In this document: positions 1,121-64,000 of the stretch, piece by piece
Layout: each line of letters opens with the position of its first letter
Position numbering within the stretch: position 1 is the stretch's first letter
Assembly: GCA_003971905.1 (NCBI GenBank)
Contig: RSEE01000019.1
Span: 558,001-622,000, forward strand
DNA length: 64,000 nucleotides
DNA from: Moniliella sp. 'wahieum'
Lineage: Eukaryota
Reading direction: 5' to 3'
Program-made: the position numbers and the translations under genes
Notes under the pieces: generated by a model
The model's input: only the letters and a program-made list of their open reading frames with translations
Databases searched by the model: none
Told to the model about the DNA's origin: nothing

Positions 1121-1915
1121 ACATGAAGCACGATAAGCGCTAAGCGTGCTGCACTACGTGTTGCATGATGGTCAAGCAAGCCATTAAGCTTGAAGCTTGA
1201 AGATGCATGTTGCTCGAGCAAAAAGTAGACTCTACTGGTCGTCCTTGGTTGGTGCTGGGTATTGCGACTGATGTGTCTTGCATAGGCCAGTGGCGGGGCG
1301 AGCAGAGCTGCGACCACGCAGGCAGGGTCTTTCAAGTGTCGTTGCCGTATCGCCAGCGCAGCCAGGCCCAGCACTGGCCCAGCCCCCTTGTCCAGCATTG
1401 GCCTTGAAGCTTGACATACGTGACATGTCAAGGTGCTTGCGATGCCTGAAGCTTGAAGAGCGACGAGGTGCCTCCGGACAACATGCAGCTGCCCCATGCG
1501 TCAATTCCCGGTGGCGGCAAGATATGGGATTCCCCACACAGGGGTGGCGCCTGCGGGTAGCCGAAGCAGGCGCGTGGCCAGTGTGTTGCGCTGGTGCCCT
1601 GCGGTGCCCCCTTTGGGCCTGGGATTGGCGTGACGCGTGATGCGTGGCCGCGTGACCGGGTGACCCCACCGAGACTGCATGCCAGATGCGCCGCATTTCC
1701 GCGGCTCGCATGGCAAGCGAAGGCTGCGGAGGTGGGGGCAGCAGCGCCGCATCCCCCCCTGCGCCGCACCCGCCCTGCTCCCTCTGCATCCCCAGCAGCC
1801 CCGCTCGGCCAGCGACCATCGACCATCGCCTGCCCAGCGCCAAGTGCTGCGACTTCCTTCCGCCGACCTATACCCCCCCGTGTCTTGTGTCGGTCATCCC
1901 ATAGCCTCCTCTCGC

Positions 1916-2710
1916 ATGAGCTTGCCGTCTCCTCCGCCAGCGCTCCCGCGCTCCCCCCGCCCCGCACGTACTCACGCCAGGTGTTGCTTGGTGCCGTTCC
2001 CGCTCTCTTGTTGCCCTGGCTGCTTTTTGGCTGCTCTCGCATCCTCCCCATCCCACGTCCATGCCGCCCACCCGTCGGCACCGGCATTGGTGAGGCCAAC
2101 AATGTCACTTCCCTCGCCGGCACGTGGAGCAGCGGCTCAGGCCATGTCCTGACTGGGCTTGGCTTCTTTAATCCAGCCAACTACTCCTTTACCTATCCCA
2201 GACGGCCGGCATCAGCTACAGCTTCACCGACGATGGCTTCTTTGAGGAGGCGCAGTACCAGTACAACATCAACGGAAGCGACCCTCTGTGTGTCTGCCTA
2301 CCTTATTTGGCAGCACGGCATGTACCAAGTCAACGACACCAACTGGATCATCCTCACCCCCTTCCGTGCCGATGGCGCCATGCTCCAGGCTTCTCGCTGC
2401 GCTGGCAAGACGGAGCAAGTCCAGTGGTACGGTCAACATGAGAACCTGAAGGGCTTCCAGATTGGTATCGATACCCACTATGACCAAGCGGCCTATTACC
2501 TTCAACTGTACAATTTTGACGGCTCTCTCAAACCGCTCATGTGGCAGCGTTTCAACCCACCTCAAATGCTGCCTACACAGCCACTTAGGCGATCTGTTCG
2601 TCATTCCCTTCCGCCTTGCTGCGCTGGTGTCCTACTGTCCTCCCCGATACTGACTCTACCTTTCTTTTGCTCCACAGCCCGAATCATCCAACAGCCAGGA
2701 TGTGCTTTAG
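1916..2710 (+). CDS. ROT1: ER chaperone Rot1 (apparent frameshifts; probable 3' intron)
   Basis: NVTSLAGTWSSGSGHVLTGLGFFNP...SFTYP, GISYSFTDDGFFEEAQY (alternate frame), WQHG, LTPFRADG and LQLYNFDG...PPQMLPT are Rot1 family motifs. ATG at 1916; the 3' end is approximate. Confidence 0.85.
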
Positions 2711-6384: not shown

Positions 6385-6561
6385 TCTTGCGAGGGGTAGG
6401 AGAGAGGGTTGGATGGAGGGTTGGTGGCTACTTGCTGGTCCTCGGAACGCGACGTGCACCAATTTGAATCGCCACGACGCCACGCGTCTCCGCCGTGTTC
6501 CGGACTTGACTCGAGTCTGGTGGAGGCCTACGCGCCGACGCGCTTACGTCCGCACGTGTCA

Positions 6562-6910
6562 TTTGAACATTGAACATTGATATTGAACGTTGAACGTTGA
6601 ACAGGGGCGAGGTTGTCCAATGCGTGATGGATGTTTTGAACATTTGCTGTGTGAGATTTTGAGATCTTGGGATGTTCAAGCTTGAAGCTTGAAGAGCTTG
6701 AAGCTTCAAGCTTGAGAGGGGGAAACCAAATTGTGTTTCATTCAGTGATACCAAGTCAACCAACGTACCCAGCACAACAGAACACAACCCAGGGCGCTGC
6801 CGGCGTCTCAGATCTCAGTACCTCAGGGCCTCAGTACTCAGTCTGAGTGAGTAGTGAGTGGTAGACTCAGTCACGTTAAGCGTTAACGCTTAACGACGTT
6901 CACGCGTTCA
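6562..6910. repeat. Cluster of 7-bp NN-TNA-NN quasi-palindromic arrays
   Basis: (R)TTGAAC run at 6562-6602; CTTGAAG/CTTCAAG run at 6674-6716; TCTCAGA, CCTCAGG and ACTCAGT units at about 6805-6845. Confidence 0.85.
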
Positions 6911-8219
6911 ACAGAGCCCCGACCTGCCAGCCCTTCCCCGACACCTGCTCCACTCGATATGAGTCCCAACTTCAAGGAGAGCTCGATACAGTTTTGTGCT
7001 ATAGCTTCCGGAGGTCAGATATTGATGCATTTCTCTTTGGGACTGGACTTCCCCCGGATCCATGGGGACGTGGAGAAAGACGGGATGACGCGCCACGCGC
7101 GTCGGCGGCGTGAGACGTTGAACGTTGAATAATAAATACGTTGACGCGCTCTTCATTGTGAGAACCACAAACCCTTTGACTCAGTTGTCATTTTTCGGGT
7201 GCGTTTTGCTCTGCATTCGATATTCATATGCTCCCGTGGTGCATCAAAATCTGAACGTTCCACGTTCTCAACAGCAACATATCCCCATTTTTTTGCTGAT
7301 CCCGAGGGGCCCACACATGCTGGGAGAGTTGAATACATTGAATACGCAGCGCGAGCGTTGCAGCGAGGTAACCGGTAATGTGGGAAGAGCATGAGTAATT
7401 GGCACATGTCATGGCGCGCCACCGTGGTTATTGAACACGTTTTAAGTACACGCACCAGAATACGGCTCTTTATGCCACTCAATATTTTGAGCGTACTGTG
7501 ACAAGCACGGTCTAATTGTCCTTCAACTCAGTGCTTTCTGGGCGCCTTACCTCCATCTTCGTCTATAAGAGCAAATGTGGACAGGAATCACTAGTCACCA
7601 TTGAAACCCATCTTGTGGCCTGTACCCGAGAAGGAACAGAGGAGGCACTCCACGAGCAGATGAGGAGGGCGAACCCTCAAATTTATTGGTGCACTCTATT
7701 GTGACGCGCGTGTTCTGCGCATAGCACGGATTATCGGGTAAGGCGAGAGAAGTAGGGTGGCGTTTGATTTGGTCATATAATTTGGATGGAGCTGTTTGTA
7801 CGCGCACTCAGGAGAACATGTGTTACAAAAGGCCTCAAGGAGGCGACACATGCACCGAGACGCCTCTGGGAGCAGCACATCATCTATCGCAGTTCCACCA
7901 ACGGATTGGAAGAATAAGAACGCCAAAAGTCGAGGACGCATCTCTTCAAGATTGTTTTATCCTCTCTAACTAGCCACTACGCATGTGCATGTGCGTAATG
8001 CTAACCATGTAAGAGCCGTCACCTGATGAGAAGGTGTTTGTTGATAATGGGAAAAAATAATGCAGGAAAGGGACTCGCTGTTGGGAACGCGGCCCATCGA
8101 GTTACCATGCCCAACGCCGCTTTGCCAATTCATCCCTATCACTTTGGGGGTTCCGGTTATGCATGCCCACCCGATTCGGAGTTGTGTGCGGCGGGTGCCA
8201 GAAGAACGAGTACGCCGGT

Positions 8220-9870
8220 ACCTGCAACCGTAACTAATAGGTACTAGTAATGCATATAATGCATAATGAGTAACTGGTAACTCGTATACGCGTCACGCGT
8301 TACGCTCTGGTAACTAGTTACTAGTTACTAGTTACTGTTGCTAGCTTCCATGCACTCTATGAAAACAGCGAATGTAAGGCACCGCGGCGCACACCAGGGC
8401 ACAGCAGCCCACACGCCATGTGTGCATGATGCATGCCACAAGTCACCGGTCACGGTCACCGGCAGCCATATCATCGCTCTGCCTGCATCATGCATCCGTG
8501 CATCAGCGCATCAGCCATCGCGGCATGGGCGCATATTGTGAAGCTGGTTTTAAGCGGCTATGCGCGACCGAGTCCTGTTTCAAGCCCCAGCGTCTCGTTC
8601 AAATATTGGCGATATCGATTGTCCAGTCAACGTGTAACATCCTAGACCCTGGCTCAATACTCAGGTACTGAAGTACGACTTGCACCGATGTTCTAATGCA
8701 TAACAAGTGACATGTGACATGTGACGCGTGACGTGTGACAGGGGACGCATGGTGCATGGTGTGTGATGCTGTGAAGTGGCCGGCCACATATGCGCAGCCT
8801 TGTGCAATGCGTAATGCATTACACCAGCAGCCAGTACGGCCCTGGTTGTAGGATTGAATTGCGAGGTGTGAGATCTGAGAACAAGCCGCAGGACGACGGA
8901 CTGGACGTACTGGACACGCACGCATCCTGCATCATGCATCATGCATCAAGCTTCCAAGCTTGAAGCAGGTTAGCGCTTTAGCCTCAAGAGAGCAAACCCT
9001 TGCTCCGCCTTGACGCGTACGTATGACTTCCCACGGTTCTAGTGGATGGTTTTACTTAGGCTCGGGGACTAAGGCAAGGTCTCAGACCCTAGGGTCTCAG
9101 CCGCTTCAATGTAGCTCAGTATTCAAAATACTAACTTGCATTGCGCGCTGGTGCTGATGTACTGATTGGTACTGGTACTCAACGTCTCAACGTAACTAAT
9201 GCTGTACAGGGGCACTGAGCGCCTGCGCCGTTGCTCCCAGTAGTCAGACTCAGTACGTACTCATGTACTCAGTTATTCATTTCGACACGGAGACAATTGT
9301 CACCCTTCGCACGGTGCATCACGCATCGTTAGTGATTAATCATTAATCATGTATCGCATTGTCACATGTCACATGCCACTTCTCCTCGGCTGAGCGGGCG
9401 CGCTGAGCGCGCTCAGGCTGAGCTGAGGGTCCGCTCCCAGTCAGCTCTCAGCCGGCTGAAGCTGAAGCTTGAAGCTCCGGCCTGGCACGTGTCGAGTACT
9501 CTGGTTAGTAGTTAGGAGTTACTAGTTACTAGTTAATAGTTGCTTTAGGTTACTCAGAGTACTGAGTAAATACTCGGTTGAACGTTGAGTGTACGTTGAG
9601 TGTACGTTGAGTGTACGTTGAGTCGTACTCATTGTACTCAGTACACTCAAGACTCAGTGAGTACTCAGTGTACTGAGTACCTGAGTACTGACTGGCACTG
9701 AGATGCATGTGAGATGTGAGATGCGTGATGTATTACGTGTGATGCATCACATGCATCACATGATGACCTGGTCACCGGCACTGGAAGGCACAGCTGTGCC
9801 GTTGCTGGCTGTGATCGATGATCTAACATGTGGCATGCGAGACCGGGTGACCGGTGACCGGTGACCAGCA
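8220..9870. repeat. Dense field of 7-bp NN-TNA-NN quasi-palindromic arrays
   Basis: GGTAACT-(AGTTACT)3 at 8309-8336; AGTGACA-TGTGACA-TGTGACG-CGTGACG-TGTGACA at 8706-8740; (CATCATG)2 at 8930-8943; (GGTGACC)3 at 9846-9866; an 11-mer (GTTGAGTGTAC)3 at about 9584-9622. Confidence 0.9.
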
Positions 9871-11752: not shown

Positions 11753-14439
11753 CGGAGCATTTGTTGTATTGCATTTTTTTTTCGGGCGCAACAAGTCTTC
11801 AAGTCCCATCTTGCCCTCGAGATGCGGGCCATTCCTCTAATGGTTGTTTCTCCCAAGCACTTCTGATCCTTCTTCCCTTTCCTGGCTAATCCCCCTCCCC
11901 CTCTTGATTTGAGTTTGTCTCGTGCCGTCCCCGTGATGTAGGGGCTTTTGATCTTTTCCGCCGATTTCTCTGTCTCCTGTAAAAGAGTTGACTGGCTCTA
12001 TCGGCTTTCGTTTTTTTCTTCTGGCCCTTCCCTGCCGCGCCCAGTCCCGTGCGTTCTTCGCCCCGGCTGGGTTGGCGATATTTAATCCCACTCATGTAAT
12101 CTTCTCCGATGGGATTGTCGCTTGCGGGTGTGGATGAAATTCGAGAGGATGGATGTATCAGCCTAAAAGGCACGACCATTGTATACTGTTTGCTGCCTCA
12201 TATGTCCTCTGACGTTAAAAGGCAGTGAGAAGCGATGGGGAACGCGAGCACTCTTGCCCTGTTTTCTTGGTGCTTTTATATCCGGTAACTAGCCGTTGGA
12301 TAGGATGTCAAACAATATAATGAAGTCCAGGAAGTGGCTATGCTGGTCGTTGAAAGATATTTTATTTGACTCCTTTTCTGTCAATTGTTTGCCTCGTCCG
12401 AATGTCTCTTCATTTGTCTTGTCACTAGTCACTTCTCCCCCAGTCCCGTCGGAAGCTATAGAACTCGGCCTGATCGACCTGAACACCACATTGATATATT
12501 TATCCTTGACGCTGATGGGAGCTAAACTGCTGAGCTCTGAGAGTTCACCGGCGTTCACCGGCGTTCACCGCGTTCAACATTCAACGCTCTCCGCCGCTCA
12601 TCAGCGCCCGACGCTCGGAAGACGTGTCTACGCAATACAGCTTGCGCTCACCGCTCACCGCTCGCCGCCTCTGAGATGTCTGTGTAAGTCAAGTCAGACA
12701 ACCCAGGTCTTGGGTTTTGTGTATTGATTTCATGACATTTGCAATAAGACTCTAATAGGCATCATCAAGGACAAATAAATAAGGCGCCGCCTATATATAT
12801 ACTACTACTACCACTCATGACAGGCTTTTGCTCATCCGGCGTGTGCTCTGCCAACTTGTTGTACCAACTCAATTAGGAAAATTCAACGGTGTCGCCCGCA
12901 GATCAGGGCCATTTCCCTGCCCCCACATTCATATGCAACCCAAAAGCAGATATCGATCATCTTGTGGTATAATGTAAGCGATAAACCGACGTTTCCAACG
13001 ACATGTGAACCCTGGGTCACCTTTTCAACACATTTGGGAAGTTCCTTTCAGTGCTCCCTCTTTTTAGCAATATTTGTTGATGATGATGGCATAGTGCTCT
13101 CTTATTGTCATGGCCAGAGGAAAGAACAGATCTTGAGTGTGTCCCTGTGATAGTCGTTGTTGTTGCAAAATAATTCACTTCCTCCAACATGGCCCCCTTT
13201 CCGTGTTACAAATAATGCTTCACCGTCATCTCCTCGTCCAATACCTACACCCCTTGCGCCCTTTCTCATACACTCACAGAATGTAGTCCACCTTCATCCT
13301 CACTGTTCCAAACGCTCCGGTGGCTCCATTAAACGATCATTCATACGCCTGGCCTTCCTCCCCCACCCCGTTTCCTCTTCTTATCCTCCGCCACTAATAC
13401 ACAACCAGATTATTGAAAAAACATGAGTGTTCCAGTTGGAGTGCACAAAAAAATGAGAACCTGCTTCCGTCCTGAATCGTGCAACGTCCCCCGATGTTGG
13501 TTTGGGTGCAGGTATAGAAATCAAGATGTGCTCAAGCTATGACATTGCTGTGATTCATGCGGAGATGATAGCTTCCCTATAGACAGACTCTTTCTGTGAC
13601 GCTGGTACTAGGCCATTGCTGTATCCGGGTGTTTGCGCCTTCATTTGTCCTCCTGTTTTCCCTTTTCTTCCTCTTGTCTCTCCCCATGCCGGATACCGCT
13701 TCCCTCTCGTTCATTCTCTGTGCTCGAGATCACATCCCTATAGTTCTTTCAGTCAGCAGTGTTGTATATGAGGGGGGGACATCTTATTGCGGTCGGGTGT
13801 GGTCACAGCGCAACGACATTAGACCACCCACAGTTGCACTTGGTTAGTAGGCGAGGCACAACAGGATATACGCAGCTGTGCTGGAGAGACCAGTCTGGAC
13901 ACCCGCTTTTTGTCGGTGGCTCGAGGCACTTTTAGCAAAAATATACATCAAGGAAAGCCAGTTGCAACACATTGTGCTGTGCTCAACTACCTCTCGTCAC
14001 CATTCTGCTCTCACATTGACACTCTAGAGTAGCACACCTGGTTAAGTTCCCTGCTATATAATACAGCGCTGGCGCTGCGTCTTAAACTCCCCTACGCGTC
14101 TGCGGGCTGCGGGGTCCTCGAGAAGCTTGTGACTGTTGACGATCAACGATCAACGTTCCGCGTTCAACGCGGCGTCAACGCACCAACGTCGTCAAAGCTC
14201 AACACAGTGTATAAGTGGTGGTACGATCGCTAACTCAATCCTGTGTGTTATACAAGTCACTCCTGTCACGCTTTTTTCTGTTTTTTGGCATGCGTATACA
14301 GTGCGTAGAGAAGTGACATATACATTTTGACCAATGCAGCTGTAGCAACACACGTGGCACCGCACGCACAAGCCCATAATAGAGCTGTAGCCTGTGCTGT
14401 AGCCGCCTCTGTTTGGCATTGTGAATTGGATCCATCTCA

Positions 14440-15246
14440 TGGGATACCTCCTGAGGCCTGAGGGTCTGAGGCTTAAGGCAGGCCTGACATGCTGACATTT
14501 GTCGGCAACGTATTATCTCGGCAAAAACTCTCATATGTGTCACATCTCAGATCCCAGACCACAGATCTCACGCGTCACGCGTCACGAGGGATCTCATCGA
14601 AATCAACAAAAAGGCTATCTCTCTCCACCATCAGGGCCTGAGATATCCGGTCTCGGCCTGAGATCTGAGATCTCAGATCTGATATCTGAATAACGTTAAT
14701 AACGTACCCAGGTATATAGCTTGGTTCCTAAGGCCTAAGGCCTAATACTTAGTACTTATGATACAACTTATGGCCTGCTGCACGTGGGAATGACACGGTT
14801 AGAGATCGGTCTAAGATTATCGAGACACCAGCATATCTGCGCTCCACGCCGCGCTCCACTCAATATACTCGATGTTTTCTCTCCCCGATCCCAACTCTGT
14901 CCCACTCCTTTGTCCCAGATCCCAAATCCAAAATGTGTGAGAGCATGTGAGCCAGGCCAGGCCAGGCCAGGCCTTCCCGAGACCGAAAGGATATCGGAAA
15001 CGAGACCCCGGGCAAGCAAGCCTTTTGCCACGTCCACCCCACTTGCGTCACTGGGTCACCGCTCACCGTGAGCGCGTGAGCTCTCACCTGGTTATCCTAA
15101 GACGTCACGCGTCACATGTCACGCGTCACGCCTCAGGGCCTCGTGAGCGCGTGAGCCTCACATGCTCACACACACACCACGCGTCACGCGTCATGCGTCA
15201 TGCATCATCTTGTGACGTAGAGACACATTCGGTGTGACATGTGACA
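14440..15246. repeat. Cluster of 7-bp NN-TNA-NN arrays, partly overlapping the presumed Gypsy 3' LTR
   Basis: CCTGAGA-TCTGAGA-TCTCAGA-TCTGATA at 14657-14684; (CCTAAGG)2 at 14727-14740; CGTCACG-CGTCACA-TGTCACG-CGTCACG-CCTCAGG at 15103-15137. Confidence 0.85.
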
Positions 15247-16620
15247 TTGCCCCCTTTCAGACCTCACCTCCCTGGCGTTGGAGAAGGCAGGCATGGGCCA
15301 TACGACGGGCGCGGGGAACAGGCTTGTCGGGGTACATCGCATGGAAACGAACCACCGGGTGGGCGTCATGGGACACGTCCGCAGCTGGCACCCACTCCCG
15401 CTCGTGGACAGGGTAGCCTCGGAAATGGACGAAGTATAATACTCCAGATGTCCACCGCGACCCTTACGAGAACCTCCTGCAACTCATGATGAACCGCCCC
15501 ATCGTCGGCATACTCGGGGAGGGGGGAGGGGGCTCGACCAAGCGGTTAGAGACCTCGTCGCCCGAACTGTAGGCGCGCAACCGCGTGACTTGGAACGCAT
15601 CGTGGATATGAAGCCAATCAGGCAGGCGAACTTCATACGCAGCACGTCCGACAGCACGGACGATTGGAAAGGGTCCCAGGTAGCGGTAATCCAACCCGTC
15701 GGAAGGACGTTGGGTGGATAAGTAGCCATCGCGACGGACCAAAACCGGTTGACCAACTTCAAAGGAGTCGGCCTCGGTGCGATGCTGATCAGCGTAGTGC
15801 CGATACCGCTCCTGGGCTGCGGCCAGGGTCTTCCGCGCTACGGCCTGGGTCGAGCGGAGACCCTCGAGGTACGAAGCGGCGTCCGGCACGGCCGATGACG
15901 CAGCCGCTAACTCACCGCGGGGCGAGTAGCCATACGTAAGGAAAAAGGGGGACGCGCCTGTGCTGGAGTGGGGAGAAGAGTTGTAAGCGAACTCGGCCGT
16001 GGGAGAAGATAAAACCAGTTTGACTGCTGCTCATCCAGGTAGCAACGAACTGGTACTGTTCATCAAGAACCTGTAGTACCTGGTTTACCCTCTCCGTCTG
16101 TCCGTCCGATTGGGGATGATATATAGATGATATATGATACGCCGTGTTGAGGCTCGAGTGGATGCCCAAGTCACTGCACAGGGCCCTCCAAAAGTGGCTC
16201 GCAAAAGTAGGACCACGGTCGCTAACCAAGTCGCGCGGCAGCCCATCGTAGCGGAAAACGAGGTGAACAAACTGGTGGACAAGTCGCGGTGCCGTGTCCG
16301 TTGTGTGGACAGGAATGAAATGCGCGAACTTATAGTGAACCTGTCCACCATGACCAAGACGGCATCGAAACCCTTCGAGGGTGGCAGGTGGGTAATGTGA
16401 CAAGCGTGCGCATCAGCAGGTGCAAGCTGTCGTACCTCCCCCCGAAGAAGTGAATGCAACTCCTCCATATCCGGTGGGCACCACTTCAAGCCCAACCACG
16501 GACCACAGTAATCTTCCACCGGCACAGGAGGTATAGGACGCTCCCCGTCCACGTATCGCCTTGTGGGGCGCAGTGAGCTGGCCGCTCTGAACGCCTGAAC
16601 GCCCTGAACGACGACAACCC
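15241..16620 (-). mobile_element. Truncated Ty3/Gypsy (chromovirus) remnant: integrase and chromodomain region
   Basis: ITHLPPSKGFDAVLVMVDRF, GLPRDLVSDRGPTFASHFW, YHPQSDGQTERVNQ, the GPF motif 'RYLGPFPIV...AYEVRLP..LHIHDAF' and a PPPP linker. A purine tract GAAAGGGGGCAA is followed by TGTCAC (minus strand, 15258-15241), consistent with a PPT and LTR start. Confidence 0.88.
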
Positions 16621-19900: not shown

Positions 19901-20504
19901 TTGCCGCTCCAGTTCGAGGGGATTGGCTGTTCTCCGTCCGCCTTCGTTTGTTGGGATCCGATTCGCTGCTCTCCGACCGTTTTCGTTTGCTGGACTCTTT
20001 CGGCTTATAAATCCAGGAAGGGAGGTCCATGCCCGCAAGCTGCCCAGACGCCATGCGCTTGTCGAACGATTCGCCCAGGTAATCTGTGAGCGGACCACCG
20101 TTTTCGATCACTGCCTTTGTAAACATTGCCAGGTGATGATCATTAGTGAGGGTCCTGCAGGCACACAGGTGCATCAACATACGATCAGAAGAGAAACAAA
20201 GGTAGAGCGATGACCAGCATGAAGAGAGAGACCTACCGATGCTCAAACTCGACCTTGCGCTGCACCACATCGTCATAGGTAGACAGCGACGGACTGCCCA
20301 AAGTGTGTTCCCTTTGCAGGCAAAACTCCATGAAGGCACGCGCCTTGGGCCGGTAAGTCTGAATGGTGGCCAGGTTGAATTCTTCATCTTGTCCTCTTCA
20401 AGGATCCGCAAATCCGCCAGACGCTGATCTCGCTGCGTCTTGAGGAACCAGGGATGAAGTGACCTGCTGAGGGCGATCCTGCTGAGGGTCACCCGCTGAG
20501 GCAT
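16912..20504 (-). mobile_element. CryptonF-type tyrosine-recombinase transposon (NDC10_II-like recombinase domain plus GCR1_C-like domain)
   Basis: STVNGYLSSVGGLHQFQ, DGYT, RDHAMACLSHYGLLRGSNAR, GKPNQEG...GAMRNK, HYLAVLRYLKAAG...KKTDIFRGSAARIAE..GV....GRAGHW, FRRIILQDA...LPVFQSPEY and the GCR1_C-like WEEWDKGWGG...KRRRRV. Element ends not determined. Confidence 0.88.
18922..19089 (-). repeat. 12-bp minisatellite, 14 copies (encodes EDGP-type tetrapeptides)
   Basis: (GGTCCATCCTCR)n on the + strand; the minus frame reads EDGP ADSP EDGP EDGL EDSP EDGP KDGP EDGL EDGP EDGL EDGP EDGP EDGP EDGP. Confidence 0.95.
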
Positions 20505-24735: not shown

Positions 24736-25323
<588 letters not shown>

Positions 25324-33729: not shown

Positions 33730-35390
33730 CCTGCTTACCTGTCCTTGACAGTTTCCGATGTCGTCACAGGAAGCGGCACCCCTTTAGATTCCCAATTCGT
33801 TTCCCACGTGTGATTGTCCATTTGAGTCTGCCTCAACCAGCCCATTTTCTTCCCCCAGTTTCTCCAACACCGCCTGCTTCTCTACCCGTAGGTGCACAAT
33901 AAGAGAAACCCCACGTTTAGATCCCCTCACAGTACACCTCAATGCTTTTGTCAGCTCCACCGGGATGAGACGTGTGCCTCTAGAGCTTGAGCCACAGGCC
34001 TCATATGAGGGATCAGCCTGACCCTCCTGACTAGTAGGTAGTAACTAGCAAACTGGTCTAATGTGGAGCAAAACACGCCGGCTAATTTGCGTCACCTCGT
34101 CAACCATTTGAAGGAACGTCATCGTAATCATCAAACTTGAGCTGCTCAATGTCCCCACCCACAGATGGGACACCAGGCTTACAGCATTACAGGCGAGTGA
34201 GGCGGGTGAAGCTCGAAGCCTCAGACCTGAGGCCCTGTGACACGTGAGAGATCTAAGGCCTAAGGTGACAATGGTGCCGTGGGTCACAAAGTTAAGCAGT
34301 AATAGGGTGCCCTTTGAACACTGCTATGCCTTGGCGTTGCTTCCCATTGCCGAGCCCGAAGCAAAAGAAAAACTGGGCGCGATGTAAAAGTACCAACGCT
34401 CGAACAGACTGGTATTGGGTATTGCGTCAAAATATTTTGAACGACGTCTTGCAGTGCCCACTGCCCATGAGCGCATGAGCGCACCAGCTGGTCCACTGGG
34501 TACTGAGGCCCCTTGCTCGCGTGCGGAAGAACTTGTATCACGAACTAAAGGTGTAGCAGCCATTATGCATTGACAGGGTTTAACGTTTAACGCGTTTAAC
34601 GGTTTAATTGTCTCCATGCCCCTTTCGTTCCGCCCCCGACGGAATGGCACCTGTTCTGTCGGCATGGAAATATCCGTTTGCCATGGGCCTCCGCAGCAAC
34701 AGCTAATAGCCATTCGTCACTTCTCTCCCTTTCTTCGGCTACTGGTCAAGGCGGTCTCAAAAACAATCCTATGCACATCTGGAGCATGACTCCACCAGAT
34801 ACAGGGCACCTCCTTCAGATGGCTGGGCGTATGTCGTGAATGAACAAGCCCGTTTCCGTTAGCCTTACAACAACGCCGATTACAAATCGCCAAGCCTTTC
34901 TCTCGATGGAATCGTTGGGTGTACTGAAACCCAACGTGCGTGCTCAACGTCAGCCTCGGGGGAAATGATGGAATGAGATGAATCAGTATCTTTTTGCGGG
35001 GAGGGGATAGAGCAGGGAACATGATGAAGCCTGGAGACTGAGCTAGGTCGGCACAGACCCGAGAGTGGAGAACTTCGAGGGAGCAACGCTATATGAAGGT
35101 GCGCCATGGGAGGTACGAGTGGGAAGAAATGGCTAACCAACACCATGATGGGGGGTCAGCAACGAACAGGGACAGGGAAGGGGCATGGAAGCAGGAGATG
35201 ATAACGACTCACCAGCAGCTACCTTGCCCGTTCCCCTCAAGAGAAGAAGTGCCGACAGCGGTCACGCCATCGAACAGCGCCACCAGCACGGGCGTATCCC
35301 AGCACTTGGAAATAGCAAGATGGAGCAGATCCAGCCTACCGACGCGCGGCTGCTCTGGGGCCAAGCCAAAATGGAATAGGGAACGACAAG

Positions 35391-36137: not shown

Positions 36138-37423
36138 ATGCCGCTTTCGTTTGAAGAGATGCGCGAGTGTGCGGGCGCGCTCAGCAAGGGCGTGGGCGCC
36201 GGCGCGTGGAAAGACGTGGAGGCGCTACTCAAGCGTCTCCGCGACCATGCCGAGCCCACTGAGGAACAGATCCGCTCCACCAAGTTGGGCAAGACCATTG
36301 GCACGCTGCGCAAGTCCACCGAGCCCCACATCTCCGATTTGGCAAAGGCCATCGTCAAGAAATGGCGCAACAAGGTCGAAGCCGACAAGGGCAAAGACGG
36401 CAAGAGGAAGGCCGAATCCAAGCGTACGTCGTGTGACCATGCCCCATTCCCATGCTCGCTTGTTCGGATACTGATCCCTGTCCATCTGTATGTAGCTTCT
36501 ACCTCTTCCAAGACAGACCCTCCCAAATCGGCCTCGCCTGCACTGTCTGTTTCTCCCACCAAGCCCTCGCCGGCTCCCACTGCTACCTCACCAACTAAAC
36601 CAGCCAAGCCGACTCCTTCCTCGTCTACTTCCAAGCCTGCCGTGCCCCGAAGTACAACCAAGATTGACTTTGATGTTCTCGGGGACCGAGTTAGGAATGC
36701 TTGTCTTAAGCTCTTGTTCCAAAGCCTCGAAGTTGACTTGAAGGACGGTGAGTTGCACGTCTCACATGATCCTGCCAAGGAGACTGAGTACTGACCGGAA
36801 TCCCGTCTTGTCAGACAAGGTGGTTGCCTACGAGATGGCGCTTGAGATTGAGAAAGCTGTTTTTACCAAGTGTGGGAACGGAGAGACAAATGGGGAGTAC
36901 AGGACCAAGGTGCGTTCGCTTTCTCTAAATCTCAAGGACAAGAACCCTGCGTTGCGACAAGGCGTACTTGATGGTCAGATCGATCCTGCTGCGCTGGTGA
37001 CGATGACTCCGGCTGAGATGGCCTCGGACGCGCGTAAAGCCGAGCGCCAGCGGCTTCAGGCACAAAATTTGTTCAATGCCCGCGCTGCTGAGCCACAGGA
37101 AGCCGAGACGGACATGTTTGAGTGCTCGCGCTGCCATCAGCGCAAGGTGCGCTACTTTGAGAAGCAGACGCGTAGCGCTGACGAACCCATGACCGGTACG
37201 TTTTTCTTTTTCTATGCTTTGCGTTTTGAGATGGGCACTAACGCGCTGCGCTTTGGGCTACAGTGTTCTGCACCTGCACCAACTGTAACTTCCGGTACGC
37301 CTGGATCCGGCTCCTTTCTCTTACCTGCTTTGCGAGACGTACTAACATCCCTTGTGGTTCCTTTGGGTGTGGCCTTCGCATCTGCCTCTCTGCGATTCCT
37401 CCTTCAGCTGGAAGTTTTCGTGA
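36138..37423 (+). CDS. DST1: Transcription elongation factor TFIIS (three introns or more)
   Basis: N-terminal TFIIS domain (IRSTKLGKTI...LAKAIVKKWR), YRTKVRSLSLNLKDKNP and the zinc ribbon CSRC...QTRSADEPMT-VFCTCTNC...WKFS. Confidence 0.95.
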
Positions 37424-42526: not shown

Positions 42527-42595
42527 GCTGGCAAGCGAGGGAGGGCCGCGTCAGCTGGGCGGCTGGGCTAGTGCAGCGCACTCGGGGGATGGGGC

Positions 42596-42685
42596 GGGAT
42601 GGGGCGGAAGGCGGATGGGCGGAAGGGCGGATGGGCGGATGGGCGGATGGGCGATGGGCGGATGGGCGGATGGGCAGATGGGCCG
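42596..42685 (+). repeat. Octamer GGGCGGAT tandem repeat upstream of SSN6
   Basis: About 9-10 degenerate GGGCGGA(T/A) copies read directly from the sequence. Confidence 0.85.
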
Positions 42686-44330: not shown

Positions 44331-44406
44331 CGAGAATATGACAATAACGATCCCCAAACTTTAGAACGACCGAGAATATGACAACGATCGACAAACTTTA
44401 GAACGG
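44331..44406 (+). repeat. Imperfect tandem duplication of about 40 bp
   Basis: CGAGAATATGACAATAACGATCCCCAAACTTTAGAACGAC followed by CGAGAATATGACAACGATCGACAAACTTTAGAACGG. Confidence 0.85.
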
Positions 44407-45546
44407 TGCTTTGGGCGTGCATATATTTTGGTTTTGCTCGTTAGGTCACGACTGTCTCGTTTTGCTTGGTCTAGGGTGCAGAGCCACTCGATGACCCTGT
44501 GTAGTAGATCACTTGGGACAAACCGCCTCCCCTTCTTGCCATAACCAACACCTTGGTAGTTCGTTGGCTTCCGCCCCATCCCATCCATCCCACATCAACC
44601 CCGCTGGTGCAGCATCTCGCGACCGGGTCCTCGTTCACCCCTGGGCGGCGAGTCCCCGCAGTGCACGCCGAATCCCCTTCCGTAAAGACGGGCTGTTAGC
44701 CCGTGACAGTAGGTACACCCTTTTTTCTCAGTGTCGGAGCTGCCATCGGCCGTAGGTTGCGATCATATACATGCACACGGAGGGAAAGATGAGAGGGGGG
44801 TGCGACGCCGCCGACCTTCTAAGCTGAGGTCAACGTTTTCACCACTTTTTCCAACTGGGCTCAGTCAGGCTTCTGGCAGAATGATTAATGAGGAGAGTGT
44901 GCATGGTGAGTGCGGTGGGCGCCAAGCCGAAACGCTGAGCCGCTGAGCCGCTGAGGCCGAACCGGGAACCAAGCACCCAAAAGGAATAAGCCGCCAAGGT
45001 AAGGTGACGCGGCGATGTGGCGTCACAGCTGCACCGAGCTGAGACACACTATAGTCATCTAGTCATCAGCGCTGCGCTGCGCTCCGCGCTCCTCCATTGT
45101 ACAAGCGGTGTGGGCCAGAAAGGAAGGGGGATGGGTTGGGCGGCTGAGACCGGAGATGCGCAGGCTAAGTAGCTGAGTCCTGAGGCTCAGGCTGAGGAGC
45201 AAACGTGAACTTTCTCCGTCTTCGGATCTCACAGATCTCACATGCTCCCAGCGCGTAGCCGGTGTTGGGATCGATGAGATCTGAAATCTGAAAAGCACAT
45301 CCAGAAGCTTTTGGAAAGTGAGCCCGTGCACCCGGCACCCGAGTAGACGTCCCTACTATCTCACTCAAAAGTCAAAAGGGCAATAGGTGGGTGCTCAGAC
45401 AAACCAGCGCAAGTCGCTCTTCTTCATCCGTCCCAGGCCGAGGCGGCGGCGAGGTATAGTAGGAAGTTACAGTGCTCCCAGTTTGTAGGGGCACACTATG
45501 ATGTGCAAAAGACCCAAGTTATGTGGGCCTCCCAGTTGGTAGGCAC

Positions 45547-45808
45547 GTATAATGATCCTGGTTACCCAGCGATGTCCTAAGTGCAGTTATGCAGTGGTAG
45601 AGAGAAGACAGGAGCTGGGTTGAACGTTGAACGTTGAACGTTAAACGTTGAACCTAGACTGAGGATCAGAAGAAAAGAAAAAGAGAAGAAGGAGACGGAG
45701 GAAGAGTGGCACAAGGCCAGAGGATAGGGATACCGACGCTGTGGTGCTCGGATGTAAGAGGGTCAGGATGACCTCGGAGGTGGTTGGCCCTTCGGACCCT
45801 GGTCAACA
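45547..45808 (-). mobile_element. Probable solo LTR of a Copia-related family
   Basis: The minus strand starts TGTTGACCA, as do the LTRs of the neighbouring Copia. It interrupts a degenerate repeat of about 50 bp. The other end and a target-site duplication are not clear. Confidence 0.4.
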
Positions 45809-46371
45809 ACACTATGATGTGCAAAAGAAGTCACAGGCCTCCTAGTTTGTAGGCACGATATGATGTGCTTTGCCTGGCTTCATTATGTTTTTGAATCAAG
45901 GTGTGGGGGAGTGGTGGGGCTAATAATATAGGAGGACGGGTGATGCTGATGGTGATGGGCTTTTGGCAGTGGTGGATGGCTACGCGAAGTCAGACCTCAG
46001 ATTCAGCAGAGGTCTGTTGAATGCTGAACGTTGAACGTTGAGGCTGTGGAGGTGGCGTCTGTGTCGGACGCCAGGCCGACACCCCCGCGTGCTCTTCGCT
46101 GGGGCAGGCTGAGGTCACAGAGAGGAGACGGTCAGACCCTCACAGGAGTGTGTTATACAGAAAAGAAGAGAATTGAATGTCGTTCAAGTTGAACGTTGAC
46201 CCGTTGACCATTGACCAAAGATGATAATTGACCATTGACCCCGTCAATATGCAATGGCGCGATGAGAAAGATGACGATGCCAGAGACGAACTCAGCATCG
46301 TTCGCAGCTGCGCCTCAGCGCTCAGCATTGCATGAATGTTCAACGTTGAGTTCAACCTTTTGTTCAACATT

Positions 46372-46581
46372 TGTCACAGGCCTAGCTAGCGATGCTGGCG
46401 ATGGTCGATGGAGATGGCATTCAAGAGCTAAGGAGAGCTAGAGCTATGGGCCTTGATAGGCTCCTGGCCTGGAGGCCAGTGGAAACCCGTGGAAGGGTCG
46501 GAACTCACTGCCCCGGTGCACTGTGTGGATCGGGCCACGTGTCACTGAGGCCGATGGGCTCTAGACCACTGGTGGTCAACA
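46372..46581 (-). repeat. Copia 3' LTR (210 bp)
   Basis: Matches 51414-51624 except for one single-base indel by visual comparison. Confidence 0.95.
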
Positions 46582-51396: not shown

Positions 51397-51413
51397 GCTT
51401 CAGATTGTAGCTC
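51397..51413 (-). promoter_or_regulatory. Putative primer-binding site complementary to a tRNA anticodon arm
   Basis: GAGCTACAATCTGAAGC abuts the 5' LTR. Its complement folds as TCAGA-TTGTAGC-TC(TG), a stem with a 7-nt loop. Confidence 0.6.
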
Positions 51414-51624
51414 TGTCACAGGCCTAGCTAGCGATGCTGGCGATGGTCGATGGAGATGGCATTCAAGAGCTAAGGAGAGCTAGAGCTATGGGCCTTGATA
51501 GGCTCCTGGCCTGGAGGCCAGTGGAAACCCGTGGAAGGGTCGGAACTCACTGCCCCGGTGCACTGTGTGGATCGGGCCACGTGTCACTGAAGGCCGATGG
51601 GCTCTAGACCACTGGTGGTCAACA
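51414..51624 (-). repeat. Copia 5' LTR (211 bp)
   Basis: Direct repeat of 46372-46581, upstream of gag on the minus strand. Confidence 0.95.
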
Positions 51625-58229: not shown

Positions 58230-59782
58230 AGGGCAGGTGGTGGTGACTTGGGTTTATGGGTTAAGGTTGCGATGGACAGCGGACAGAGATGCTTTCATCT
58301 TTCAACTTTCGGTCTTTCTTCGGTCTGAGCGGCCTCCTGGCCGATGCACCGCAGCAGCTGGTAGCAGCAGCAGCACCGATCGCCCGCCATCTGGGTCACC
58401 CATCGGGCTTTACGAAGTTTCAGCTCCACGCTGCACGATTAGATAGGCTTTGAAATTTGACATGTCACTAGTGCCACTTGAATATGATCACCAGCTGCCC
58501 TGCCGTGCGCAGGCGCAGCAGGGGCCCTGCATGGCGCCCCAATCGCCCGTCTGTGGGCGTGTCCCAGCTCCAGCGCCAGTCACGCGTGTCACATAGTGTC
58601 ACATCCTGTCACATACAGGCCGCAGCTCCCCCCAGCCGCCACTCCATTCATTAATCGAACCATTAATCATGCACGGTGTCTGATGACATGGATGACACAC
58701 GAGGAAGTGCTATCGGATGACTACCCATCTTCATCACAGAGCATGGCTGCACAACTAATTTTGAAGCTTTTGAAGCTAGTTTTCCCGAGCGCCTTTTTGG
58801 AAGCTTGAGCTTGAGCACTGGAGGGGCAAAGGAACGCTGCGTCTACACCAGAAGTATATCGTACTGGACCCCGCGCGGGTTGGGACGCCCCTGGGGCTGC
58901 CGCCCGCCCCTACTCTTCGTCTCTATTTCGGAAACCATATGTAGCTGTGGTCGATCTAGACCCTATTGCACCTGCTTCGCCCTCAGGCTGAAGACTGGGA
59001 GCCTCAGTACTGAGCTGAACACGCACAATGTCAGACTTTGCCCGAGGGAAAACCCACGCCGACGTTGTCGGCGCTCACCGTGACTTCCCCCCACACATTG
59101 GGTATTGTATAGTGCACCCGCGCGCCAATGAGGCCTAGTAGGGAATGCTGACCCGCCCCGGGCCCCTATCCCATTTTCGTCGCTGTGGTCTCTGGTCCTA
59201 AAATGAGATAGTCGGGCTCTCTCGTCCGCATCGGTGCGACCGCCAGTGCTTCTATTTTTGATTTGGAGGAAAGAGACATATGTGGAGGGGGAGTTGCTGC
59301 TCATCACGTCCAAGCAGATCTGCCTTTCGTCCACAGGTTGGCGTTCCCATCGCCCTCGCGGGCACCTTCCTCACCTACCGACGGACATTCTCAGCAACAA
59401 GTCGCCATACTGATGGGACAGGTCCTAAGCAGCACTTATTGGACTCTCTTCTCTCGTCAAGGATCGCAATGAGATCCGTATAGGTAATACTGGGCATTGA
59501 ACTTCTCGACGGAAATGGATGCCCCGTCGAGAGGATACAGACGACCAAGAGCTGGTTTCACCGTGGATTGAAGCTGGACTAAGACGACAGCTGGTAAGCT
59601 AGGAAATGCCTGGGTCTCAAACATAGATTGACGCAAGGATGATGGTACAACGAAAAGGACAAAAGTGGGAGGCAACTTAATGCTCCAAAGCGCGACTGGG
59701 CTCAAAGGAACATGGCGGGCATCATGCATCATGAGAACGATAGTAAGCTCGTACATCATCATTGATTATATCAATGGTCGAA

Positions 59783-62293
59783 TCAAATATAGGAAGGCAT
59801 TCCCTCTTTTAAAGAGCTTAGAAAGGCGGGCAACAGAGTGCGGGTATATAGCAGGGCAGGTGGGGGAGCAATCGTGTGGATCGGTGTGTAGTGCACCTGC
59901 ACGCGATCAGGCCCTTCAGCGAGAAGATGCTGCCCACACGGATCAAACGAATCGAACCAGTGGCGAGGATCCGTCTTCGACTCGGTACCCCGGGCAGGCG
60001 AAACGCAAAGCCCCGAAAACGGCGTCATTGGTGCCACATCCGCATCGTTTTGGCTTTGAGTCATCAAACGAGTCACCATCCCATCCACGTTGCGTACCAG
60101 CGCATCCATCCAGTGGGGACAAGCCTCCCTTCCTAGCCCTGCAGGTGGATGAGTATCCGGGTGGGCAAGGATGAACCCCCTACGGACAATCAGCTCGGAT
60201 CGAACATGGTCCCAAACACTCCAGTTGACCAGCGCGTCCAACTCTTGCATCACCCCGGCTCGCATCGTTGGCTCCAGTGTGTTGAGAAGTCCGTCACAGT
60301 TGACCTCAATTTTAGTTTTGCCCTTCTCCGAGCTCACATGAGGCGAAGAACCCGAAGACGGAGAGTGCAGACCGTCCGTTTCAGAGGTAGCCATGAAGGC
60401 ACATCCGCGCTCACACCAAGCCAAAATGGGATCGGCCACCTCGGGGATGCAGCTGAGCTCATGGAGTAATGTCCACAAATTTTGCTCATGACGAGCAATC
60501 AACGCCGACCAAATCTCGCGGGTCGAATCCCCTCGCTCCCGTGTGGCGATCAAATCCTCGAGAAACATTTGAACGTCCCCCAGCCGGTCCGCAAGATGGG
60601 CTCGTTTCGCTGCCAAGGCACAGACGGGAAGTAATGCGTTGAGCAAGTCTTTGATCAGCCCGGGTACAAGCCCTGACTTCATGGCGTCATTGGCGTTCTG
60701 CAAGTCACGAGCGTAGAATACCTCCCGAAGTAACAACTTGAGCCGAGCAAAGGCCAGTGCATCCTGCTCCCTCCTCCTTGGTCAAGGGACGAAGCGGCTC
60801 GCCGCCTACAGTTCCTGCTCTTTGAAAATCCTTGGCAGCCGCCGCTTTGACCTGATCGCTCGCAACGGGGTTAGCGGCATTCAGGTGACCAACATATTGG
60901 GATCGGGCAAAGGACGCTTGCATCCGCCATACATGGGCCTCCTCGTCCGCCTGCTCTGCTCCATTTCGTAGCCCACGGAGCAGAATGACTGTCAAAATGT
61001 CGATCCCTTCGCTGCGGGCCTTCGCCACGACAGCCTCTCGCTCAGCGGGTGAGACAGTGTGAACATATGCCTTGACAAGCTTCGCGTAGGACTCGTATTT
61101 TTCAGGGATGCTGTTGGCGACGGGTGCGACTCGGGTGGTTTCGAACAGCTTGTGCTCCCGAGCAAAGTTGTTGCGCACAATGCGCTGGATCACACTCTGT
61201 GTCCCGGCAGGCCGAGCTAACAGGAGCGAGATCAATCCCTGCACGATCCCCACAGCCGAGGGGGAGCGCAGTACCTGGCGAACCGCCCAAAACGGAAAGC
61301 TCGCTACTCCATTTTTGAGGGAGCGGAACATGAGATCACTCTCGGGTTCGAACATGAGCAACTGAAGCAACAGGTTGGCAAGGCCTTCGCGCACGACACG
61401 AATCACGTTCTGTTTGCTGGGGGGCAAATCACGGATCAGGGGCGTGGCAAGCGAGGCCCAAGCATGTCGCATCCCCCGGGCTCCTCGATGCATTCTACCC
61501 AAAACGCTCGCCAGTCCCATGCTTGCTGTCGTGCATGCTGACCTGCGCGGTGCCAGATCTGTCCTTGGGGCCCCGATTCCAAAGGGAAGAGGTGGTCGAT
61601 CCGGGCTCGAAGAGAAGGGGGGATTTGAGCGGGGCGGGCCAAGCCACGTTTGATGCGAGCTCTCCAAGGTGTGCTGGACTCAAACTGGCCCTCCCCCTCT
61701 TGCTCACCTCCCACCTCGTCCGCAATACCAACACCACGGGAAAAGAAATGGGATCCAAGATCAGCTGCCATGAGGAGGCGGTAGCGAAGCAGAGTCATCA
61801 TTCCTCGCTCCAGTGGCGATGACATTTGGCGGATGGCCAGGTCGTCAGCAAGGGCCTGGATGCGCATCCGCCAGAATCGGTCGGGGAGCGAATCGAGAAA
61901 GGGGAAACCTTGAGGGACGCGTGGAAGATAAATCGAAAGATGATGGGCTCGGGACCAGGATGACGCTGGCCGTCCATGAGAGTGCGTGTGGGCGTTGGGT
62001 TCTTGCTCCTCCTGATGTCCCCATTCGGCGCAGGGGTGCAGACGGGGGCGGGGGCAAAGGGCGGTCCGTAGAGGGCGAGCTGGCCAGGACGCATGAGGTC
62101 GTCCAGCTCGCGGCCAAGTTGAAGCGAGACGAGGGAGCTGACGAGGTAGTGGCGCTGCTCGGGGGACAGCGCGGGGGAGGCGGCGGGCGGAGGGGGCACG
62201 AGTGAAGGGCGTTGGACAGGGGGGCATCATCGGCGATGGTGCAGTGTCCGCTGCGGCGCTGGCGGCGGGGAGGGCATACGCGACGGCACCCAT
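59783..62293 (-). CDS. PX-associated (PXB)/DUF3818-type protein
   Basis: LSPEQRHYLVSSLVSLQL..E...LALYGPPF, FRFIF...FPFL....FW..RIQ, FPFWAVRQVLR and LLLARPAGTQSVIQRI. Confidence 0.75.
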
Positions 62294-64000
62294 CGTGCGC
62301 AGGACGGCACGAGGACGAGGACGAAGACGAGGACGAAGACGAGGACGAGCTGCGCAAAACGAGGGCGGCGGGGGTTGAGCTTCGCAGGACGAGTCGATCC
62401 TCCATTCTGCATTCACGCGCAAGCATCCCCGCCCGCAATCTCCGACGGGCCCTTGCGTCGCCGAGGCCAGCAGCCGGGCATTGCAATTTGAAACCACCCA
62501 TGCCATCTCATCGATCATCCATCATCGGTCATGATCTGGCGCCTAGCTTGCTTTTCCGAGTTGACCAAAATGCGACGAGCAAGTTTCAAAGCACATTTTC
62601 CCATCGAGTGCGAAGTGCGCGGGCCAACTTTTGTCGAGCAAAAAGACCCATGTAACGGGCGAGGGTGGGGGTAGCCGAGCCCGGCCGAGCTCGGCCGAGC
62701 TTGTTCGGACGTTGAACGAACCCATGTAATCCGTTATGTCCAAACGTAGCATGTTCCCATCTCTATCTCGATCTATGCAGCTATGGGATCAAGTCCCGTT
62801 TTCGTGCGGCTGAGGGGATCTGTACGCGAGCTTCTGCGTCCCTGCATGATTTTAGCATACTTCAACTATTTTGGTCTTTAGTTTTGTACGCACGTCAGCT
62901 CTGAGTCGAGCCACCGGATCTGGACGTCGAGCGTCTCGTTTTCGTTTGAGATTCTCCCCTCATGCCTTTACCCGATTTATAGCCGAGGGCGGAGAACCTC
63001 TGCCCTTTATTAGCTTGAGCACTTTTCTCGTTTTGACTGTTCCCGATTCTGGCTGAGTGTGGGAACCTTTTCTTACTTAGTTTGTGCTTCTTTCTGGGAG
63101 ACAGTAATCTCGACTCCTTTCCCTTTCTTTCTTCGTTGTGTTGTCTATCCTTTCTAGATCCTGCATGTATAGCCTTGATCCGTCAGTTCCTTTGCTCTCC
63201 TAGCGGCGAATTTCGTCTTTGTCTCTTCTCGTCCACACATTCCGTCTGTTTCTCTCGTCTTTAGTCCTTGTACACCATCCTTTTCCAATGCATCGTTGAC
63301 CTGCCAGACAACTCCGCGGTGCGTTACTCTTAGTACTTGCGAACCAGTTGTCCCTCCGACCTGCTTCCAGCAACCCCCTCTTGGTCTCTTCCCGTATTTT
63401 TTTCGACCGGGCATCCATTGCCGTCGATGTCCAGCTTTCTGCCTTCTCTGTACGGATCCCGCGGCGATCCTATAAGAGGTGAGTTGTTCTGCCTCAGACG
63501 GAACCTGTCCTAACCTGTCTTTGTTTTGCCTACGGCAACTGAAGGGTTGGCTTGTTTCGGCGCATACTCACCCTTTTTTGCCACCCGAGCCGATACCCCA
63601 ATTGATAGGCCTCACCTCGTCGTCGCTATAGTTCCCTTCGGATCTGCCAGTAGTGTTCGGGTTCGATCAATCGTGAATGGCCTGTCCTTCTCCACTCCAA
63701 AGGAAATCGCCCTTAAACCATGGGACGGGTTCTAGTCCGGGGCCCGCGGTGTGACGAGCCATCCTGCAACGTTCCATCTTTTTATACCAGTGACGATGAT
63801 GTTGGGCAACTGCTGGTGGGCACCCAGTTCCGTTTTTCTCGTGTTGCCTCTGTCGGTGCGCAAACACGAGGAGAACAGGGCACAGTCCTGGCAGCAATTG
63901 GAGGGCTCAACTTCGGTGTTGAAGATGAAGCCCCGCGGGGGTCGCTTAGCATCCTGGTTGTTCTTACATCAATCAACTACTGTGGTCGATGGACTGACCC

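Follow-up and report, generated by a model that had tools for sequence, protein, structure and literature searches.

Dense seven-base scars at T-N-A sites in a 64-kb window of a Moniliella genome, probable footprints of transposon excision through flank hairpins

A 64-kb stretch of nuclear DNA from the fungus Moniliella sp. 'wahieum' (assembly GCA_003971905.1, contig RSEE01000019.1, positions 558,001 to 622,000; hereafter the window) carries many short scars at which a site xyTNAcd has gained exactly 7 bases, becoming either xyTNA-y'x'-xyTNAcd or xyTNAcd-d'c'-TNAcd (x, y, c, d and N stand for any base, and a prime marks the complement). Scars of this general kind are known, and those of the window are remarkable for their density and regularity. 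The scars are probably the donor-site traces of a cut-and-paste transposon that duplicates 7 bp of its target, and whose excision leaves perfect hairpins on both flanks that are opened 2 nt from the tip and joined by ligation of the overhangs. An earlier note on this DNA had described arrays of palindromic heptamers with a T-N-A core in most intergenic regions, and had suggested as their possible source an enzyme that repeatedly hits NNTNANN sites, duplicates 7 bp and is repaired through flanking hairpins, in the manner of hAT excision.

A seven-base pattern specific to T-N-A sites

The scars were sought by a rule that spans 12 bases, in the form [xyTNA][y'x'][xyTNA] or in the mirror form [TNAcd][d'c'][TNAcd], and the counts were compared with those in 200 block-wise dinucleotide shuffles of the window. 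The rule matched 38 times and its mirror 39 times, against 0.18 and 0.21 in the shuffles, and each of the other 15 possible cores gave only 1-4 matches under the same rule, so that the enrichment implied by the earlier note was present against both kinds of control. The ten arrays that it had given as examples were likewise all recovered, no more than a few bases away from the positions claimed for them. The 77 matches fall into 47 clusters, 30 of which are single bare 12-mers. As an outside control, 80 contigs (679 kb) of eukaryotic metagenome sequence that surround homologues of tubulin were scanned in the same way; they contain 11 TNA-core 12-mers (0.16 per 10 kb), compared with 77 (12 per 10 kb) in the window, and the TNA core accounts for 8% of the matches to all cores in these contigs and for 65% in the window.

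The same signal is visible in the exact tandem repeats. Runs of at least two copies number 87, 60, 50, 14 and 9 at periods of 5, 6, 7, 8 and 9 bases, respectively, with period 7 in excess, and in 25 of the 50 period-7 runs some rotation of the unit is palindromic around its central base, a property of 10.4% of all primitive heptamers. The core of the palindromic unit is T-N-A in 23 of these 25 runs, the exceptions being CCCAGGG (11032) and TGCTGCA (43097).

Two TNA triplets with the same N flank a 4-bp palindrome at 69 places, where 2.1-2.4 are expected, while other cores around such a palindrome occur 1-13 times against expectations of 2-10, none of them being clearly raised. Among TNA-TNA spacers of 0-12 bases, enrichment is confined to a length of 4 (137 against 42) and to the second neighbour at 11; no enrichment is seen at the adjacent lengths 3 and 5 (48 and 57, both against 42). 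Fifteen of the 16 possible 4-bp palindromes serve as spacers, which bears out the claim that most of them do (13 had been listed). The central base is distributed as TGA 34, TCA 20, TAA 8 and TTA 7, with background counts of 1025, 978, 333 and 333. Since N follows the background and nearly every palindrome is used, there is no binding-site-like preference beyond T-N-A itself. Perfect palindromes of ten bases are enriched in the TNA...TN'A class only (17 against 2.3).

Palindromes copied from the flank

One half of the 4-bp palindrome is identical to the dinucleotide beside a TNA in 59 of the 69 junctions, the full set being divided into the classes F (20), R (21), both (18) and neither (10). 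Because the palindrome is copied from the two adjacent bases in these 59 cases, it is made by the event and is not recognised as a target; nested events account for the 10 junctions of the last class. The original site xyTNAcd can be reconstructed for the 30 isolated events; in these, x and y are nearly uniform in composition, and the outer flank is not complementary to the inner one (8 of the 30 have d = x', and 13 have c = y'). As these bare 12-mers make up 30 of the 47 clusters, their flanks show that T-N-A is the only target and that the self-complementary flanks arise as a product of the event. The T-N-A core of the target proposed earlier is therefore retained, while its self-complementary flanks are reassigned from cause to consequence.

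The array at 8708-8733 includes one unit with an A-to-G change, and the CGCG spacer that follows this unit is templated from the altered flank, which shows re-hitting with local templating and not slippage. A longer array at 15103-15135 can be read as the product of three events and one substitution. Repeated hits on the same sites, as postulated in the earlier note, are thus directly visible in some arrays; elsewhere slippage may have added copies, and it probably contributes to the long arrays.

Length of the duplicated target

The junctions were placed in a grid by two numbers, k1 for the bases that the left copy has lost and k2 for the inverted bases that stem from the right copy. Its diagonal predominates, with 77 junctions at (2,2). 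Two rarer forms preserve more of the target, namely the first six bases of the heptamer followed by y'x' and a whole heptamer (net +8; 11 loci), and two whole heptamers separated by y'x' (net +9; 7 loci), which the shuffles yielded at 0.15 and 0.00, respectively. Among the ten TNA-centred repeats that consist of two whole heptamers separated by any two bases, the latter repeat in inverted form either the first two or the last two bases of the heptamer in 7 cases, where about 1 in 8 would be expected by chance. Five bases are therefore duplicated always, six at 11 loci and the full seven at 7 loci, and since the +9 junctions carry all 7 bases in both copies, the duplicated target appears to be the 7-bp nnTNAnn with T-N-A in its centre, rather than a 5-bp or 3-bp segment. 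The junction at 9745..9760 is direct evidence for duplication of 7 bp.

The commonest product may also be read as five direct and two inverted bases, yet the products expected of shorter duplications are scarce in the window. A 5-bp duplication would leave xyTNAxyTNA, which is not enriched (5 against 2.7), as well as the mirror P-nucleotide product xyTNA-TN'-xyTNA, with 4 and 2 matches against 0.14 and 0.21 in shuffles, which are few beside 77; the +9 product predicted by the 5-bp model was found 0 times. The product of a 3-bp duplication, TNATNA, is not enriched either (50 against 42.5).

The two mirror forms are balanced overall (38:39), among isolated events (14:16) and at non-palindromic sites (20:21). 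Non-palindromic sites also display chimeric spacers, of which 10 are plain direct and 5 double-inverted, where 0.13 and 0.17 are expected.

Proposed excision model

The sequence suggests a history of insertion followed by excision. An element would insert through a 7-bp staggered cut centred on T-N-A and thereby produce the target duplication nnTNAnn. On excision, both flanks would be sealed as perfect hairpins, and a host nuclease would open each of them 2 nt from the tip, giving a left overhang cdd'c' and a right overhang y'x'xy, each a self-complementary 3' extension of 4 nt; the duplex would then end exactly after the A on the left and start exactly at the T on the right. The overhangs could lie across each other, each 3' end abutting the recessed 5' end of the other side, so that ligation alone, with neither polymerase nor trimming, would create a +7 heteroduplex with a 4-nt bubble. 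Replication would resolve this bubble into xyTNA-y'x'xy-TNAcd or xyTNA-cdd'c'-TNAcd in equal numbers. If the overhangs overlapped by 3 or 2 nt instead, the rarer +8 and +9 scars would result, and patchy mismatch repair of the heteroduplex would lead to chimeric spacers. The heteroduplex idea predicts such spacers, and both types exist in the window. Each scar would provide two TNA sites, on which new hits, and probably slippage, could build the 7-bp arrays. Deeper openings of the hairpins (k = 4-7) would yield the TNA...TN'A palindromes, which occupy 13 positions and could alternatively derive from mismatch correction inside arrays.

This scheme would account for the net gain of 7 bases, for the balance of the mirror forms without any asymmetric step, for the +8 and +9 classes and for the chimeric spacers. 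The 7-bp NNTNANN duplication with hairpin and P-nucleotide repair put forward in the earlier note came through each test made on the sequence, among them those of the flank templating, the mirror balance and the longer junctions. The note is borne out in part, and what has to be amended is the description of the target and the analogy with hAT.

Several observations weigh against excision of a transposon. The 64-kb window contains no candidate element bounded by inverted ends and by a 7-bp duplication of nnTNAnn, and a scan of the window for inverted repeats bordered by 7-, 5-, 3- or 8-bp duplications returned few matches, all of them between one array and another. A domain search at the Pfam level covered 177 stop-free frames of at least 120 amino acids and assigned a DNA-transposase family to none of them, only retroelement integrase and reverse-transcriptase domains being found; at that level, the earlier remark that the window holds no intact DDE transposase is true. 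Termini of the type CTCACTG have 19 matches in the window against 10.6 expected, and no pair of them has matching ends or a duplication. For products of end joining the junctions vary unusually little, and a +11 form, in which both overhangs are kept, was never seen in the window. Some 47 clusters in 64 kb are also many for an element that has no local copy, and they imply very many visits. The hAT consensus, nTnnnnAn, differs from the nnTNAnn target. Moreover, ligation across the overlap is a step that we infer, rather than a documented pathway in this organism.

Alternative explanations

Part of this evidence would suit a process in which no mobile element takes part. A host enzyme, such as a domesticated transposase or another hairpin-forming nuclease, could make 7-nt staggered breaks at T-N-A, the repair of which duplicates 7 bases and adds two inverted ones, so that the scars would record an endogenous mutational or promoter-remodelling process. 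The lack of a fitting transposon in 64 kb, the very uniform junctions and the concentration of events in a few upstream regions all speak for such an enzyme. It is nevertheless unlikely, though to be taken seriously, since a pair of duplex ends, both of which bear the whole 7-mer and go through a hairpin stage, is what the excision of an inserted element gives, while a staggered break filled by a polymerase would leave a plain direct duplication, which is a minor class only (10 against 41 at non-palindromic sites). Another scheme retains a transposon, of the Transib type, with a 5-bp duplication (xyTNA) and with two P nucleotides only on the flank away from TNA. It describes the commonest product literally, Transib/RAG-type enzymes do form perfect hairpins, and the duplications given for the CMCT clade in the text of PMC12730594 are 2-5 bp. 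The +9 and +8 junctions with their 7 and 6 duplicated bases, the absence or near-background level of the products that the scheme predicts, and the asymmetric nnTNA target, which requires a fixed orientation of the element and one-sided opening of the hairpins, make it improbable.

The position of most events upstream of genes would also agree with tandem palindromic promoter sites selected for binding of dimeric transcription factors, and some units resemble bZIP-type half-sites such as TGACG. Such a regulatory role is very unlikely to explain the arrays, in view of the 15 spacers in use and the background frequencies of N, of spacers that are set by the two adjacent bases, of the events at 36783, probably within an intron, and at 16128, within a dead gypsy fragment, and of the +8 and +9 variants, which break the phase. 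Less likely still are ordinary heptamer microsatellites expanded by replication slippage with a hairpin-related bias to palindromic units. Arrays of 3-5 units exist, and slippage can lengthen any tandem duplication; however, it requires an existing repeat and could not create the first inverted dinucleotide, whereas 30 of the 47 clusters are single first events, the CGCG unit at 8720 was templated anew, only the T-N-A core shows the effect and the units obey the flank-templating rule. An assembly or sequencing artefact has a negligible probability, as no known error mode produces so varied a pattern that is tied to a sequence, templated by the flank and depleted in coding frames.

Several further mechanisms were considered and rejected. 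A 3-bp TNA duplication with P nucleotides predicts xyTNA-TN'; under an 8-bp duplication combined with an offset of 1 nt, the base before the repeated 5-mer should give rise to a palindrome of odd length. Palindromes contributed by the ends of a Tc1-like element were ruled out by their derivation from the flank. A hairpin at TNA of the telomere-resolvase type could not provide two direct copies of xy, and fold-back or cross-fork template switching offers no pairing for the return switch.

Comparison with known systems

Transposases of the hAT and Transib groups, RAG1 and the MULE Muta1 form hairpins on the flanks, which are probably opened by Artemis-type host enzymes before end joining leaves a footprint, according to the sections of PMC5499845 on this chemistry. 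The scars attributed here to excision resemble such flank-hairpin footprints (Ac/Ds, Hermes, Transib and MULE) and V(D)J coding joints in several respects: the empty site keeps the target duplication, inverted copies of a few flank bases stand at the junction (59 of 69 here), one junction class dominates over minor length variants, and opening of a hairpin 2 nt from its tip results in a 4-nt palindrome. They differ from these footprints in the 7-bp duplication with a central T-N-A and in the even length of the palindromes, and they are far more uniform and dense and seed 7-bp arrays.

In Hermes and Ac/Ds, which are members of hAT, the first nick lies 1 nt into the flank and leads to odd palindromes or to complement changes next to the element. 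This offset is not matched in the window, where the spacers are 4-bp palindromes of even length, without enrichment at 3 or 5. Such even palindromes rule out a nick of the Hermes type, since one placed 1 nt into the flank would give an odd palindrome and a gain of 6 bases with a 7-bp duplication, and a gain of 7 with the wrong dinucleotide inverted with an 8-bp duplication. Of the hAT analogy drawn earlier, the principle of hairpins and P nucleotides is thus preserved, whereas the even palindromes need perfect hairpins, unlike those that follow from an offset nick. The duplications of hAT elements are 8 bp long, or 5-7 bp in named sublineages, and the 7 bp proposed here match hAT7 only among those named in the text of PMC12730594. 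No hAT transposase (BED finger, hAT dimerisation domain) was present in the 177 frames of the window.

Two basidiomycete lineages are described in the same text as having 7-bp duplications, namely hAT7 of the rust fungi (Pucciniales) and Kyakuja of Laccaria, the latter with CA..TG termini; neither a target consensus nor a footprint is given for them there (PMC12730594). Both are candidate agents. In addition to the length of the duplication, hAT7 belongs to a superfamily with flank-hairpin chemistry, while Kyakuja (KDZ) has termini like those of the RAG/Transib-related clade; the window contains no Kyakuja element or transposase. CACTA, Transib, Plavaka and their relatives are treated there as one RAG1-like clade with duplications of 2-5 bp (PMC12730594). 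The perfect hairpins and even P palindromes of the Transib/RAG-like (CMCT) elements are matched in the window by 4-bp palindromes centred exactly at the boundary between copies. Their 5-bp duplication is not matched, given that the +8 and +9 junctions duplicate 6 and 7 bases and that a +5 product is not enriched. Thus, the chemistry looks RAG/Transib-like with respect to perfect hairpins, but the length of the duplication does not.

Tc1/mariner elements leave footprints such as TA-C(A/T)G-TA. These are also 7-base palindromic scars with an ambiguous central base, but their palindrome comes from the ends of the element and is fixed for each family, while that of the window is copied from the flank and varies from site to site. 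Elements of the PIF/Harbinger (PHIS) group duplicate 3 bp, TNA or TWA. The PIF/Harbinger-type element NuwaII, as described in part of PMC4482050, has a C/TNA/G target and a 3-bp duplication in two basidiomycetes. Its target is likewise a symmetric T-N-A with any central base; unlike NuwaII, the window has no enriched +3 product (TNATNA, or a spacer of 0) and no preference for C...G beside TNA. Excision of the mPing type is mostly precise, according to an excerpt of PMC4561436, and the sections of PMC12810828 on Cryptococcus elements list 3-bp, TA and 4-8-bp duplications and contain nothing on footprints. Literature searches found no description of such arrays in the texts that they covered; target logos of hAT7 or Kyakuja may exist in figures or supplements.

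Distribution across the window

Masking of exons by the G+C content of codon positions proved too weak, and open frames of at least 300 amino acids were used instead. They cover 37.5% of the window and hold 26% of its TNA sites, but only 2 of the 47 clusters lie within them and 3 touch them. The coding depletion fits selection against frame-shifting insertions, perhaps together with a preference for open chromatin; an insertion of 7 bases would be a frameshift, and scars would persist only outside exons. The clusters are located mainly in upstream intergenic regions (Table 1), with others in the dead gypsy fragment and at 36783..36794, which is probably in an intron. When the window is divided into 32 bins of 2 kb, 14 of them contain clusters, with concentrations at 0-2, 6-10, 14-16 and 44-48 kb. 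The earlier statement that arrays were not seen in exons is approximately right, there being a depletion with a few exceptions, and the statement that most intergenic regions carry them was somewhat generous.

Table 1. Regions and single junctions with seven-base scars (positions within the window)
Positions	Context	+7 events and arrays	+8 and +9 junctions
1134..1665	Upstream of Rot1-like gene	Five +7 events: 1134, 1189, 1403, 1447, 1629	+8: 1651-1665
6560..7378	Upstream of minus-strand XPG/FEN1-like gene	GTTGAAC and CTTGAAG arrays; isolated events 6806, 6831, 7117, 7367	+9: 6688-6703; +8: 6821-6835
8250..9870	Upstream of DUF7082 gene	Densest region, 12 event clusters; AGTTACT, TGTGACA/CGTGACG, CATCATG, GGTGACC arrays	
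8708..8733		Array TGACA-TG-TGACA-TG-TGACG-CG-TGACG; CGCG spacer after A-to-G change	
9745..9760			+9: CATCACA-TG-CATCACA, two full 7-bp copies and two inverted bases
14100..15250		8 event clusters; CCTGAGG, CGTCACG, TCTGAGA/TCTCAGA, CCTAAGG, TGTGACA	+9: 14689-14704; +8: 14483, 15067, 15142
34254..34607		Events 34254, 34578 (GTTTAAC)	+9: 34586-34601; +8: 34466-34480
36783..36794	Between Med26-type and TFIIS_M-type coding frames of one gene	Isolated +7 event ACTGA-GT-ACTGA	
44880..46349	Adjoins young copia element	Five-unit GTTGAAC array 45619-45653; events 46025, 46188, 46315	+9: 45227-45242; +8: 45053-45067
58449..59733		Events 58449, 59720	+9: 58682-58697, 58760-58775

Genes and repeats of the window

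The window has a G+C content of about 57% and encodes Rot1, an XPG/FEN1-like nuclease, a DUF7082 protein, TRAPPC13, NPL4, a Ras-type GTPase, tubulin, TFIIS, a TPR protein, a Zn2Cys6 factor and proteins with PX-associated domains. The TRAPPC13-like frame (21985-23604, minus strand) had two relatives, with 61% and 50% identity, in a search of 5.8 billion proteins; as this frame matched only these two, the lineage is poorly sampled in public data. A separate comparison pointed only weakly to the Basidiomycota. A ribosomal protein S8 frame (35394-36104, minus strand) is antisense to the start of a long plus-strand open frame, in which the TFIIS N-terminal (Med26) domain is encoded only further downstream, and the long frame is therefore not a single exon.

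A young Ty1/copia retrotransposon occupies 46372-51624 on the minus strand, with RVT_2, rve and Pol_BBD frames, TG...CA long terminal repeats (LTRs) of 210 and 211 bp that differ only by one 1-base indel, and a bordering 5-bp duplication, ACATT. Neither its interior nor its LTRs contain 7-base scars. Self-BLAST of the window returned only this LTR pair, which shows no 7-base differences, and tandem repeats within coding sequence. Decayed remnants of a Ty3/gypsy integrase are found at 15467-16412 on the minus strand, with the rve and Tf2-type SH3 domains in separate frames, and contain one +7 scar, at 16128.

Three long frames at 17063-20564 (minus strand), one of which has an NDC10_II domain with a tyrosine-recombinase-like fold (E = 1.2e-7), include tandem repeats that keep the frame, with units of 21 bp at 17686-17994 and of 12/36 bp at 18914-19089, and may represent a Crypton-related gene or a host gene of the centromere type. 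The block at 38000-44000 has a G+C content of 65-72%, open frames in all six frames, a minus-strand TPR-repeat gene and long G-rich low-complexity repeats (42366-42683); no 7-base scars occur in it. Among the smaller repeats are a 37-bp unit in 1.9 copies at 44331-44405 and two dispersed look-alike stretches, 45487-45550 and 45810-45860, with CACTATGATGTGCAAAAGA...GTAGGCAC in common, which may belong to a small repeat family.

Implications

On the excision reading, the scars lead back to an uncharacterised element whose target would be the 7-bp nnTNAnn. What is new here is the occurrence of +9 and +8 forms that keep 7 or 6 bases of both copies together with the same two inverted bases. If they are indeed products of excision, the genome would be a natural archive of hairpin-repair events, with dozens in 64 kb and many more if other regions are similar, and would provide in vivo evidence that hairpins in a fungus are opened 2 nt from the tip and that the overhangs are mostly joined by simple overlap.

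A more speculative extension, to which we give a low probability, is that the scars are written by a still-active perfect-hairpin transposase of the RAG/Transib type with a 7-bp nnTNAnn target, kept by the lineage either in domesticated form or on an element of very low copy number. It would be the main source of promoter sequence turnover, palindromic motifs and heptamer microsatellites, and the scars would reflect an endogenous diversification of promoters rather than passive debris. If the excision reading is true, a single transposon family could generate much of the intergenic content of short repeats and palindromes and seed microsatellites, and the 7-base steps of predictable sequence would offer a ready marker for strain typing and for studies of promoter evolution.

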